DNA from: Pseudomonadota bacterium
Lineage (GTDB): Bacteria; Pseudomonadota; Alphaproteobacteria; SHVP01
DNA length: 64,000 nucleotides
Reading direction: 5' to 3'
NCBI GenBank assembly: GCA_022566715.1
Contig: JADFIH010000001.1
Location: 2,420 to 66,419, forward strand
In this document: piece by piece, positions 10,713 to 19,793 of the stretch
Position numbering within the stretch: the stretch's first letter is position 1
How the letters are laid out: every line of letters begins with the position of its first letter
The notes under the pieces: generated by a model
Database searches by the model: none
What the model was told of the DNA's origin: nothing
Seen by the model: only the letters and a program-made list of their open reading frames with translations
Position numbers and translations under genes: made by a program

Positions 10713-10865
10713 GCCGTGCCCAATTTATCTTTCGAAGTCCTCACCCTGAGCCTGTCGCCCTGCCGGAGCAAAGCCGCTCCGGCTAAAACTTTGGGGGCGA
10801 GGACAGGTGGCAAACCCTCATACTTCGACAGGCTCAGCATGAGGGCATAGCATTGTCTCAGGCGT
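10713..10865. repeat. alphaproteobacterial REP-like palindromic intergenic repeats (LSLSK-type)
   Basis: Contains CCTCACCCTGAGCCTGTCG and its partner CCCTCATACTTCGACAGGCTCAGCATGAGGG. Near-identical units recur at 15960-16110. Generates the spurious LMLSLSKYEG ORF. Confidence 0.6.
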
Positions 10866-15936: not shown

Positions 15937-16120
15937 GCCGAGCCGTTGTTTTTGAGCCGGTGAACTCGTCCTTCGACAGGCTCAAGACGAGGCCTCATGC
16001 TGAGCTTGTCGAAGTATGGGGGAGTTCCCTCTAGGAGGTTCTCCGCCTGAGCACGTTGATGGCCTCATGCTGAGCTTGTCGAAGTATGAGGGGGGAATAA
16101 AGGCGCCGTCGTTACCGGTT
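15937..16120. repeat. REP-like palindromic repeats (two units, LSLSK-type)
   Basis: GGCCTCATGCTGAGCTTGTCGAAGTATG(G/A)GGGG occurs twice. It is the reverse complement of the unit at 10820-10850. Confidence 0.6.
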
Positions 16121-16612
16121 TCATTTTGGTTTTCGGCGAAACGGCGTCCTTCGAAGCGCCGTTTTACGCTTCAGCGGCGTCTTGCGTTTTAACGCCGTTT
16201 TTTGGACCAATGTTCGACGCGTCGGAGCTTTGCGGACTTTTCCGGTCGCTTGAGATTTGGAAACGCCGGTCTCGACCGGTCCGGGCTCAGTTTCAAGGCT
16301 GTGGCCAAGCGCAACGTTCGAGGTCCCGGCGGCCTCACCCGTGGCGACGTAAAGCGCGGCCTTTGAAGCCGTAACGGCGGGCAGCATGACGATAATTTCT
16401 CCCGCGCTATTGCGTGAAGGTTCAGGGATATCCTCACGGTTTGCCATGCGCGCGGCAATCGCCTCTTCAAGGCAATCGGCGGCGCGCGCGATCGCCTCCG
16501 CCACATCGGCGCCTTCGGTAAGCGCCTCCGGCAAATCGGGGAAACTCACGATCATGGTGCCGGACGGCGATTCCTCGAGGTCCGCGGGAAAGGCAAAGGT
16601 CGGGTTCGCCAT
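16121..16612 (-). CDS. HicB-family antitoxin-like protein with Lys/Arg-rich C-terminal tail
   Basis: N-terminal region (MIVSFPDLPEALTEGADVAEAIARAADCLEEAIAARM, then EDIPEPS) fits the HicB/UPF0150 fold. C-terminal 40 aa are KRKT/ALRRT repeats, histone-H1-like. No adjacent HicA. Confidence 0.45.
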   Translation of the reverse strand: MANPTFAFPADLEESPSGTMIVSFPDLPEALTEGADVAEAIARAADCLEEAIAARMANREDIPEPSRNSAGEIIVMLPAVTASKAALYVATGEAAGTSNVALGHSLETEPGPVETGVSKSQATGKVRKAPTRRTLVQKTALKRKTPLKRKTALRRTPFRRKPK

Positions 16613-16759
16613 CGTCAGTCCTCGGAATTTGGCGGGATCTGCTCGCAGTTGCTTAGGAAGTCTGGTCACAAATGCGGGCGAATACAGCCTACACAGAGGC
16701 CGGGTAAAATGTCCGAAAGTAAAGTGCTAAATCGGGCAAATGTGTCCGAACGGATTCCC

Positions 16760-16787
16760 AAAAAAAAGCGGCGCCCGAAGGCGCCGC
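16760..16787 (-). terminator. intrinsic terminator downstream of aceA
   Basis: Minus-strand read GCGGCGCC-TTCG-GGCGCCGC followed by T8, 40 nt after the aceA stop. Confidence 0.7.
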
Positions 16788-16824: not shown

Positions 16825-18144
16825 CTACTCCGCGGCCGTGTCCAGGGCCCCTTGGTGGAACTGGGCGTCTTCGGTCGAGTCCCTGAGCGCCGTCGTCGAG
16901 GACCGCCCGGCGCTGATCGTCATGGACACCGCATCGAAATAACCCGTGCCGACTTCGCGTTGATGGCGGGTGGCCGAGTAGCCCCGGCCTTCGGCGGCGA
17001 ACTCGGCATCTTGCAGCTCCGAGTAGGCGGCCATGCCGCGCTCGGCGTAGCCGGTGGCCAATTCGAACATGCCGTAGTTGAGGGCATGGAACCCCGCCAG
17101 GGTCACGAACTGGAACTTATAGCCCATGGCCCCGATCTCGCGTTGGAAGCGGGCGATATCGTTGCGGTCGAGATTGGCCGACCAGTTGAACGACGGCGAG
17201 CAGTTGTAGGCCAGCATCTTGCCGGGAAATTCCGCGTGGATCGCATCGGCAAAGCGCCGCGCCTGATCGAGGTTGGGCGTGGACGTCTCCATCCACAGAA
17301 GGTCGGCGTAAGGCGCGTAGGCGAGCCCGCGCGCGACGCAGCGCTCGAAGGAGAGCCCCTCCTTGTGCCGGTAGTAGCCCTCGGCCGTGCGCTCGCCGGT
17401 AATGAACGGCCGGTCGCGCTCGTCCACGTCGCTGGTCAGCAGCTTCGCGCTTTCCGCGTCGGTGCGGGCCAGGATGATCGTGGGCACGCCCATCACATCG
17501 GCGGCAAGCCGCGCCGCGGAAAGATTGGCGATGTGCTGCTGGGTCGGGATGAGCACCTTGCCGCCCATGTGACCGCACTTCTTTTCCGAAGCCAGCTGGT
17601 CCTCGAAGTGCACCGCGGCCACGCCCGATTCGATGTAGGCCTTGGTCAATTCGAAGGCGTTGAGCACGCCGCCGAAGCCCGCTTCGGCGTCCGCGACGAT
17701 CGGCGCAAACCAGTGCGTGGCACCGCCGCCTTCCATGTGCTGGATTTGATCGGCGCGCTGGAAGGTGTTGTTGATGCGCCGCGCAAGCTCGGGGCCGCTG
17801 TCGACGGGATAGAGACTCTGGTCGGGGTACATGGCGCCCGCCGAATTCGCATCGGCGGCGACCTGCCAGCCCGAGAGATAAATGGCCTTGAGACCCGCGC
17901 GCACCATTTGCATGGCCTGGTTGCCCGACAGCGCGCCTAGCGATGCGACGTAATCTTCCTCATGCAGAAGCGTCCACAGGCGATCGGAACCCATGCGGGC
18001 AAGCGTGTGCTCGACGTGAACGGAGCCGCGCAGTTTGGCCACGTCAGCCTTGGTGTAGCCGCGCCGGATGCCGTCCCAGCGGTTCGCCGGAACCGGCGCC
18101 GTCGTCCAATCAAGCGCAGCCATGTCAAGTGTCGCGTCAGCCAT
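16825..18144 (-). CDS. aceA: isocitrate lyase
   Basis: KKCGHMGGK catalytic motif. About 440 aa. Probable start [11 protein letters not shown]. Confidence 0.9.
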
Positions 18145-18155
18145 GATTAATCGCC

Positions 18156-19793
18156 TCAAGTATCGGTGGTGGAAACAAGCCGCTCGTAGGCCGGCAGCGT
18201 CAGAAATTCGGCGAGCTCGGGCTCGAAGATCAGGGTCTCGAACAGTTCGCTGGCGTCTTTTAGGTGCCCCTCGCCAAACACCCCTTGGGGACTACTCGAG
18301 ACCTTCTCGAGCTCCTCGCCCAAGACCTTGCGGATCAGGTCCTCGTCGATCACCCGTCCATCGTCGAGCTTCGCCCCATGGTGGCGCCACTGCCAGACCT
18401 GGGTGCGGGAGATTTCGGCGGTCGCCGCGTCCTCCATCAGGTTGTTGAGGGGGACGCAGCCCGACCCGGCGAGCCAGGCGGCGGTGTACTGAATGCCGAC
18501 GTTGAGGTTCAGACGCAGGCCGGCCTCGGTGATGTCGCCCTCGGGCACCGCGAGCAGGTCCGCCGCCTTCACGTCGACATCCTGACGCACGCGCGCCAAC
18601 TGATTCGCCTCGGGCATTTTTTCGTCGAAGATGGCCATGGCAAGGGGCACCAGACCGGGATGGGCGACCCAGGTGCCGTCGTGGCCGTCGCCGGCTTCGC
18701 GCTCCTTGTCGGCGCGCACCTTCGCAAGCGCCTCCTCGTTGGCGTCGGGGTCGTTCTTGATGGGAATCTGCGCCGCCATGCCGCCGATGGCGTGCGCGCC
18801 GCGGTGGTGGCAGGTCTTGATCGCCAACAAGCTGTAGGACCGCAGGAAATGCCGCGTCATGGTGATGGCGCCGCGGTCCGGCAGCACGAAGTCCGGGTTA
18901 TTCCGGAAGCGCTTGATGAAGCTGAAGATGTAGTCCCAGCGCCCACAGTTGAGCCCGGCGATGTGGTCGCGCAGCTCGTACAGAATTTCGTCCATCTCGA
19001 AGGCCGCGAGAATGGTCTCGATGAGGACGGTGGCCCTGATGGTTCCCGTGGGCAGGCCCAGGGTCGCCTGCGCCGATTCAAAGACGTCGTTCCACAAACG
19101 CGCTTCCAGGTGGCTCTCGATCTTCGGCAGGTAGAAGTAGGGACCCGTTCCCTTATCCAGCGCCGCGCGCGCGTTGTGGAAGAAATACAGCGCGAAATCG
19201 AACAGCGCCGCCGACACCGGCGCGCCGTCCACCCGCATGTGAACCTCTTCGAGGTGCCAGCCCCGCGGCCGGACGATGAGAACCGCGGTTTTTTCGGCGA
19301 GCTCGTAGTGCTTGCCGGATTTCGGATCGTCGAAGCTGATGTCGCCCCGAACCGCATCGCGCAGGTTGATTTGCCCCTCGACGATGTTGCGCCAAGTCGG
19401 CGACAGCGAGTCCTCGAGGTCGGCCATGAAGACCTTGGCGCCCGAATTCAGCGCGTTGATGATCATTTTTCGCTCGACCGGCCCGGTGATCTCCACCCGG
19501 CGGTCCCGCAGGTCCTTCGGGGCCGGCGCGACCTTCCAGTCGCCGGCGCGAACGTCGGCGGTGGAGGCGAGGAAATCCGGCTTGGCCCCCTGGTCCAAGC
19601 GGGCTTGAATCTCCTGGCGGCGTTCGAGCAGCTTTTTGCGTTGGGCGCCGAATTGCCGTTCGAGGTCGGCGACGAAGCCAAGCGCCTCGGGCGTAAGGAT
19701 CTGATCGCCGCCCGGCGGCAGGTCGCCAACGAGTTCGACCCCGTTGCTCGGGTTGGGATTCTTGGGGTCCATCAGCTTGGTCTCAATGCTCAT
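18156..19793 (-). CDS. aceB: malate synthase A
   Basis: Collinear with E. coli AceB ([58 protein letters not shown]). Start [10 protein letters not shown]. Confidence 0.9.

Follow-up and report, generated by a model that had tools for sequence, protein, structure and literature searches.

The 64,000-nucleotide (nt) stretch of alphaproteobacterial DNA analysed here (contig JADFIH010000001.1 of assembly GCA_022566715.1; hereafter the window) carries on its minus strand, at 16121-16612, an intact open reading frame (ORF) of 163 amino acids (aa), with an ATG start and GAGGA 7 nt upstream according to the ORF list and its translation. The gene, which we call hicB-deltaHTH, codes for a HicB antitoxin that has lost its toxin gene and most of its helix-turn-helix (HTH) domain. 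We consider it probable, at about 0.6, that the locus is what decay has left of a class-3 hicAB toxin-antitoxin (TA) module, once carried on the chromosome and inherited vertically, and that a truncated orphan antitoxin has been retained. The reading is built on the fold of the N-terminal domain, on relatives at the same site in which the module is still complete, and on the pattern of substitutions in the gene. The features that matter for it are the following.

16121-16612, minus strand: coding sequence of hicB-deltaHTH, 163 codons plus the stop at 16121-16123; supported by ORF and translation, synteny, and a ratio of non-synonymous to synonymous substitution rates (dN/dS) below 1
16325-16612, minus strand: N-terminal domain of HicB (residues 1-96), an acidic partial RNase H fold with an isoelectric point (pI) of 4.05; in characterised HicBs this domain binds HicA
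16301-16312, minus strand: junction of a 99-nt in-frame deletion that removed most of the HTH; the protein reads ...VALG and then HS... across it (DNA alignment)
16241-16300, minus strand: linker, residues about 105-124, holding HSLETEP, a degenerate remnant of the post-HTH beta-strand; predicted local distance difference test score (pLDDT) below 50
16124-16240, minus strand: polybasic tail, residues 125-163, with hexapeptide-like repeats KTALKR, KTPLKR and KTALRR
16625-16684, minus strand: hicA remnant, the last 20 codons (YSPAFVTRLPKQLRADPAKF); tblastn with the syntenic HicA, E 8e-6, 75% identity
16700-16749, no strand: remains of the putative operator palindromes (TCGGACA-N4-TGTCCGA), with 1 mismatch at 16732-16749 and badly degraded at 16700-16716

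Identity of the N-terminal domain

The assignment of the N-terminal 95 or so residues to HicB is secure despite Pfam scores below threshold (20.1 bits for HicB_lk_antitox, PF15919, and 19.6 bits for HicB-like_2, PF15970, the gathering thresholds being 27 and 30 bits). A phmmer search of the PDB matched residues 7-90 to E. coli HicB (6hpb_B, 6u0i) with an E value of 1e-9 and 38% identity. The database search gave 353 relatives in all; PF15970 is present in all 120 of those listed, and the names given by their sources, where there are any, are usually 'antitoxin HicB'. An AlphaFold2 model, made from an alignment of 71 sequences, has the topology b-b-b-a-b-a (strands at residues 7-14, 20-23, 32-34 and 73-76, helices at 37-57 and 79-94) with pLDDT above 90 across residues 10-90, while residues 97-163 are predicted to be disordered and no folded domain appears past residue 96. 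The best PDB fold matches of this model in Foldseek were again E. coli HicB (6u0i and 6hpb_B, root-mean-square deviation (rmsd) 1.4-1.9 Å over 87-89 columns), followed by the HicBs of B. pseudomallei, Y. pestis and S. pneumoniae. The protein has, in this sense, the N-terminal partial RNase H fold of the characterised HicBs to which it is homologous. A preliminary description of this DNA, made from the letters only, had recognised a HicB fold here and proposed structure prediction as a check, and both the search and the model bear it out. PADLOC gave no HicB or HicA match, and neither a second hicB nor any other HicA/HicB signal was found within the 64-kb window.

Loss of the HTH domain

The closest relatives of the window protein come in two forms, one of 195 aa (P0005 and P0006) and one of 162-168 aa, to which the window protein, P0002-P0004 and P0007 belong. 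The 195-aa proteins have the same N-domain and the same tail, with a complete HTH (…ISNVALGRRIGVDERQIRRLIDPRHRSNLADIDRALMSLDRRLEI…) in between, and P0006 aligns to E. coli HicB over its whole length. The short forms have 33 residues fewer. The deleted residues correspond to RRIGKPKQEITRLFNLHHATKIDAVQLAAKALG of E. coli HicB, that is, to the last part of helix 2 together with the recognition helix and the helix after it; the window gene has lost the 33 codons that align with the E. coli HTH (RRIG...KALG), and with them most of the HTH domain that characterises class 3. In the DNA alignment 5 of 5 short forms show a gap of exactly 99 nt in the same place.

We found that in the full-length locus L001, which was scanned for repeats, 14-nt direct repeats (CGCTTGGCCGCCGC and CGCTCGACCGCCGC) bracket the deleted interval at a spacing of exactly 99 nt. 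This coincidence points to excision of the HTH by a repeat-mediated deletion. The window and the four remaining short forms have different bases at the junction, and the deletion may have occurred once and been followed by divergence, or may have occurred twice. E. coli HicB dimerises through the beta-strand that comes after the HTH (PMC11594946). This strand reads RRLEIEL in L005, L006 and L008, RRPETEL in L007 and the degenerate HSLETEP in the window, so the oligomeric state of the window protein may differ.

Loss of the toxin gene and decay of the putative operator

The P0006 locus, L001, lies in the metagenome-assembled genome GCA_022565955.1 and has the same neighbourhood as the window. 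Its gene order is malate synthase, isocitrate lyase (ICL), an ORF of 70 aa and the 195-aa HicB, then, on the opposite strand, a metallo-beta-lactamase (MBL) fold hydrolase and an abhydrolase. There and in L002-L004 the 70-aa ORF ends 10-12 bp before hicB. Searches of Pfam, NCBIfam and, with phmmer, the PDB gave no direct HicA match for it, and a word-index search with it returned 2 proteins only. The 70-aa ORF is a HicA-family protein on four lines of sequence comparison. It shares 63% identity with an RGKGSH-bearing ORF, that upstream of the next HicB clade, and 48% (E 9e-19) with an ORF that scores above the threshold of PF07927, HicA_toxin. A PF07927 match is present in 24 of its 33 aligned relatives (the ORF itself counted; most were collected in an exhaustive HMMER search), and the profile of these relatives matches the PDB HicA entries 1whz, 6hpb_A, 5yrz_B and 4p78_C. 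The GKGSH motif is present in the family.

An adjacent hicA in operon, as in class 3, is found intact in the syntenic relatives, and in the window no intact hicA lies on either side of hicB or elsewhere in the 64 kb. What is left is the 20-codon remnant immediately upstream, and the deletion junction falls between 16684 and 16685. The preliminary description had reported no HicA partner, which holds for a functional or intact gene; the tblastn check that it proposed for a degenerate copy recovered this remnant, and the locus turns out to be the decayed TA pair that it had named as the alternative to its own view. The window and L005 keep just the last ~60 nt of hicA, whereas in L006-L008 the 5' part remains and ~80 nt of the 3' part are missing. 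Two different hicA deletions are, as these alignments read, present among the toxin-less lineages.

In the HicA next to the full-length P0005 (L002:814-1026, and also in L003 and L004) the catalytic His, which is nearly invariant, is replaced by Gln (GRESQG); the HicA of L001:2194-2406 has GRESHG, and the family consensus is GKGSHG. The differences between the hicA genes of L001 and L002 are mostly non-synonymous (dN/dS about 2, on small counts). Taken together, these substitutions suggest that toxin inactivation may precede deletion. A solitary HicB is also encoded in a lineage with a 5-Mb genome (P0031, L012-L014:3001-3483). This protein has an intact HTH and a short basic tail (RKTPKKGPPAARRRAIV); no hicA precedes its gene, and the next gene on that side is divergent, at a distance of just 122 bp.

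Characterised HicBs bind palindromic operators through a DNA-binding domain (DBD) at the C-terminus, either HTH or ribbon-helix-helix (PMC10865869, PMC11594946). In L001 two perfect TCGGACA-N4-TGTCCGA palindromes, 33 nt apart, stand just before hicA (L001:2138-2188), and perfect copies also stand in front of hicA in L002. With up to 2 mismatches allowed, 49 of 77 distant genome loci, drawn from several phyla, have the palindrome in the 450 nt upstream of hicB, and 0 of the 74 control regions do. The copies are tightly clustered, mostly 250-270 nt upstream of hicB. It precedes hicA in E. coli-type hicAB loci of cyanobacteria, acidobacteria and several proteobacterial classes (the distant loci include L009, L015, L028, L033, L035, L044, L060, L065, L072, L077, L086 and L093). 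As a by-product of this work, TCGGACA-N4-TGTCCGA emerges as the very probable operator of the E. coli-type HicB-HTH subfamily, apparently conserved across several phyla. The decay of both copies in the window fits the loss of the HTH.

Selection on the retained gene

The hicB-deltaHTH gene is represented by 7 sequence clusters at one shared syntenic site, and its ORF is intact and real, with dN/dS below 1. Selection was estimated by the Nei-Gojobori method on a codon alignment of seven alleles only, from a small clade known from metagenomes only. Purifying selection still acts on the N-domain and the tail now that the toxin is lost, and not on the linker. Among the five toxin-less forms dN/dS is 0.23-0.42 in the N-domain; in the tail it is 0.08-0.42, and in the junction and linker (window residues about 100-124) it reaches 0.8-1.6 when the window is one of the two sequences compared. 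Pairs with one and the same hicA deletion, which would have diverged after it, have a dN/dS of about 0.25 (Fisher p about 2e-5). Between the N-domains of the window and L005, for example, there are 24 synonymous changes at 74 sites and 22 non-synonymous changes at 220 sites (Fisher p 2e-5), and the synonymous excess is similar for L006 against L007 and L006 against L008.

The distribution of variable sites over the first, second and third codon positions is 23/13/54 for the N-domain, 7/9/19 for the tail and 7/13/14 for the linker. The third-position excess in the N-domain and the tail argues for constraint on the HicB reading frame and not on an overlapping DNA or RNA element; the linker has no third-position bias and no detectable constraint. 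No frameshift or stop was found in the five short forms, which differ at dS 0.2-0.45. Neighbour genes compared between the window and L001 give a dS of about 0.30, close to the 0.36 of hicB, which fits vertical co-inheritance. The window gene is in this sense an orphan antitoxin, retained without its cognate toxin under purifying selection.

The polybasic tail

The tail counts 18 Lys or Arg and 0 Asp or Glu among its 39 residues, has a pI of 12 and is predicted to be disordered, so its basic character, pointed out in the preliminary description, is real. A search for the same architecture in relatives, which had also been proposed there, found it in the whole clade. The tail is near-identical in all members, full-length HicBs included (KAPTRRTLxRKTALKRKTPLKRKTALRRKP…), and is the most conserved part of the protein. 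The full-length HicA-paired relatives P0005 and P0006 carry both HTH and tail, which means that the tail did not replace the HTH, as had first been thought, even if the absence of the HTH was correctly seen. Judging from these sequences, the tail is an older C-terminal appendage of this HicB clade that predates the orphan state, and in the ancestor it presumably assisted or supplemented the HTH on DNA. The tail of P0007 (L007:377-883) has one extra 18-nt unit, an added TPLKR[KN] hexapeptide, from which it follows that the repeat number varies by whole hexapeptides.

Basic C-terminal extensions recur in the HicB subfamily: at least 12 residues are added in 21 of the 120 relatives listed, and many of these extensions are rich in Lys and Arg. 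The KT[AP]L[KR]R repeat tail is restricted to one small clade of 7 clusters, all from metagenomes. The GTDB species representatives contain no close relative (best 53% identity) and added no short or long forms. A search with the tail only, as an alignment of six tails, against an index of 5.8 billion proteins gave 4 candidates, none of which scored, and it missed the clade's own members, so that it is uninformative. A tblastn search of the tail against phage genomes gave one meaningless match (E=6), and Tandem Repeats Finder did not call the 18-nt repeats. Neither Pfam nor NCBIfam matched the window protein to a linker-histone, Hc1-type or other nucleoid-associated protein (NAP) family, and the repeat unit is not of the K/A/P-rich kind; the histone-H1-like character once attributed to the tail is a resemblance of composition. 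Such tails go unmentioned in a 2024 survey of HicA/HicB architectures (PMC10865869).

Neighbouring genes and transcription context

Four further features describe the surroundings of the gene.

16619-16623, minus strand: Shine-Dalgarno sequence GAGGA of hicB, from the sequence and the upstream alignment (columns 616-620); kept in all relatives
16760-16787, minus strand: intrinsic terminator of aceA, GCGGCGCC-TTCG-GGCGCCGC followed by T8, which parts aceA from the hicB remnant
16825-18159, minus strand: aceA, coding for isocitrate lyase; it adjoins hicB on the upstream side and shares its strand; context only
15965-16092, no strand: palindromic repeats resembling repetitive extragenic palindromic (REP) elements, flanked by hicB and the convergent gene of the MBL-fold hydrolase; context only

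The start codon of hicB is conserved in the relatives together with the Shine-Dalgarno sequence, as seen in the upstream DNA alignment. The aceA gene is 97% identical to the L001 gene with the Pfam ICL domain. Both aceA and hicB are on the minus strand and hicB is downstream, past a terminator that is graded strong (an 8-bp all-GC hairpin with a T8 tract, at 16768-16787). The preliminary description had put the gene directly upstream of aceA, a position that would suit a regulator of aceA; the order is the reverse, and that premise falls. NCBI annotates the gene as a 137-aa hypothetical protein with an internal start (MCH8181553.1). The old hicA stop TGA has become CGA (16622-16624), which puts the hicA remnant in frame with hicB, so that a 182-aa ORF from GTG 16669 appears. 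This GTG was rejected as the true start, the extension being the hicA remnant read through the mutated stop, without a Shine-Dalgarno sequence.

The REP cluster does adjoin the gene, as had been described. REP-like elements (CTCATGCTGAGCTTGTCGAAGTATG) lie 3' of hicB as two direct copies 70 nt apart and an inverted partner; an extra copy is found at 10819-10843 of the window, and the same element family also follows hicB in L001 and L005-L008. L005 and L006 have a GC hairpin with a T-tract directly after the hicB stop (GGCGGCGCC-TTCG-GGCGCCGC-TTTTAT), where the window (16095-16121), L007 and L008 have the first hairpin arm alone (GGCGCC-TTTATT) before the REP element. The hicB terminator appears, from this comparison with L005 and L006, to be truncated in the latter three. 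The aceA terminator hairpin of L001 contains a ~140-nt insertion (L001:1962-2101) with terminal inverted repeats (CTAGAGCAATATCCG and CGGATGCTGCTCTAG) and internal palindromes; it has the look of a miniature inverted-repeat transposable element and is absent in the window and L002.

Discussion

Under the decayed-module reading, an ancestral module made of hicA and then an HTH-bearing hicB would have stood between aceA and the gene of the MBL-fold hydrolase, and its HicB, like that of the intact relatives, would have consisted of the N-domain, the HTH, the beta-strand and a C-terminal extension of ~50 aa that closes with the polybasic tail. In the window lineage hicA has been deleted but for its last 20 codons and hicB has lost 99 nt, with which the second half of the HTH went, recognition helix included; the palindromes have degenerated, and the remaining ORF is intact. 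The product could presumably no longer bind its operator or autoregulate. Since all five short forms share the HTH gap yet carry two hicA deletions, a speculative order of events may be that autorepression was lost first, that hicA thereby became a liability, and that it was then deleted twice. The acidic HicA-binding fold has been kept and would probably still sequester HicA-type toxins made elsewhere, which would make the protein a solitary antitoxin of the anti-addiction type. The HicB N-domain neutralises HicA and suffices alone in characterised systems, and naturally DBD-less HicBs exist (PMC10865869, PMC11594946). In this sense, the conservation of the N-domain suggests that the window protein may act in the same way on HicA-type toxins. 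Orphan antitoxins are frequent, and an anti-addiction or a regulatory role has been proposed for them (PMC7192599).

Several observations weigh against this reading. No HicA target was found within the 64-kb window. The HicA of this subfamily has no match among the PLSDB plasmids, where the HicB matches are distant only, which leaves the anti-addiction role without direct support. Anti-toxin activity alone does not explain the conservation of the tail, which is retained, disordered and polycationic, and to which its composition most likely gives a non-specific affinity for nucleic acids, DNA or RNA. With dN/dS of 0.05 for aceA and 0.15 for the MBL gene, against 0.25-0.4 for hicB, constraint is weakest on hicB. 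The five short forms resemble one another in a mosaic pattern; this suggests recombination and blurs the claim that they diverged after the deletions. Finally, no sigma-70-like promoter was detected from the aceA terminator to the hicB start, and expression of hicB-deltaHTH is a prediction drawn from selection.

Some of these points would suit a functionless relic, that is, a slowly decaying pseudogene whose apparent constraint comes from its recent TA past or from a recombination artefact. With hicA and the HTH gone, the operator degraded, the downstream hairpin apparently truncated in the window, L007 and L008 compared with L005 and L006, the linker and the dimerisation-strand remnant neutral in the window, no promoter-like site found and an internal start in the NCBI annotation, there is something to be said for such a relic, but we regard it as rather improbable. 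At the divergence seen among the five short forms the frame is free of frameshifts and stops, pairs with the same hicA deletion keep their significantly low dN/dS, third-position bias is strong in the N-domain and the tail, and the Shine-Dalgarno sequence and start codon are conserved. A different possibility is that the tail is conserved as a structured DNA element, a terminator or REP-type hairpin on either strand, for which the peptide is irrelevant. Short inverted repeats do occur in the tail-coding DNA (AAACGGCG...CGCCGTTT, for example), and there is one weak terminator-like site on the plus strand at 16166-16180; such matches are, however, no commoner than in shuffled sequence, and substitutions at the third positions of hicB codons keep the amino acids and alter the hairpin arms (ACG/ACT/ACC/ACA, CCG/CCT/CCC, CGT/CGC/CGA). 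On these synonymous changes an overlapping hairpin or terminator was rejected as the cause of the tail conservation, and the idea is highly implausible.

The preliminary description had suggested a domesticated antitoxin. On this view the N-domain and the tail would have been exapted, once toxin and HTH were gone, as a nucleoid-associated or regulatory nucleic-acid binder, possibly acting on the expression of aceA or of the glyoxylate shunt. An ORF kept intact at dN/dS below 1 in at least five toxin-less lineages, a polycationic tail more conserved than any other part of the protein, and a stable position beside aceA would agree with it, and maintenance by selection makes a retained or new role plausible. 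However, the tail and the adjacency to aceA are already found in intact hicAB loci and so predate the orphan state, the gene is downstream of aceA past a strong terminator, no sequence-specific DNA-binding domain is left, no histone-like or NAP family matches, and the clade is tiny (7 clusters, none among the GTDB species representatives). We consider this domestication quite improbable. The same low credence applies to a version of it in which (KT[AP]L[KR]R)n would be a clade-specific nucleic-acid-binding module and the N-domain with the tail a small RNA- or DNA-binding protein, such as a chaperone or a nucleoid-associated factor; if true, it would be an antitoxin domesticated through its appendage and not through its canonical DNA-binding domain.

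Read as a decayed module, the locus and its same-site relatives document in nature, step by step, the decay of a chromosomal type II TA module: intact hicAB, a HicA whose catalytic His has become Gln, two hicA deletions, the 99-nt HTH deletion and the decay of the operator are all seen as stages. The mechanism of HicAB as known is unchanged by these findings. A toxin-binding domain and an undescribed polybasic tail, both under selection, bear on the question of what orphan antitoxins are, functional genes (for anti-addiction, cross-talk or some new role) or debris.

Comparison with known systems

Polybasic tails resembling histone H1 occur in bacteria in mycobacterial HupB/Hlp, Pseudomonas AlgP and chlamydial Hc1. 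Like these, the window protein has a disordered, cationic, repeat-bearing C-terminal tail on a folded domain; unlike them, it has the repeat K-T-[AP]-L-[KR]-R and not K/A/P-rich PAKKA, KPAA or S/TPKK, it matches none of their sequence families, and its DNA binding would be a prediction from composition. The small DBD-less HicBs of classes 1 and 2 are of 63-103 aa and paired with hicA (Gerdes 2024, PMC10865869). The window protein shares with them a HicB fold without a recognisable DNA-binding domain, but at 163 aa, with 60 aa of disordered linker and tail and no partner gene, it falls outside both classes, and its loss of the DBD would be a recent secondary deletion from a class-3 ancestor.

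The closest known system is the class-3 hicAB of E. coli K-12 (PDB 6HPB, 6U0I), to which the window protein is linked by the homology and fold of its N-domain (38% identity, rmsd 1.4-1.9 Å). The full-length relatives of the clade match E. coli HicB end to end, HTH included, and have the same order of hicA then hicB with palindromic operators upstream. The window copy differs in having just 20 codons of hicA left, 33 HTH residues missing and degenerate operators, and its clade differs in the ~50-aa C-terminal extension with the polybasic repeat tail, which E. coli HicB lacks. Orphan antitoxins have been surveyed in Klebsiella (PMC7192599), and solitary hicB genes have been noted (PMC10865869). 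The window gene resembles them as an antitoxin homologue retained at the original TA site after loss of the toxin, and is distinguished from them in that the antitoxin has also lost its DNA-binding domain and keeps a conserved polybasic tail.

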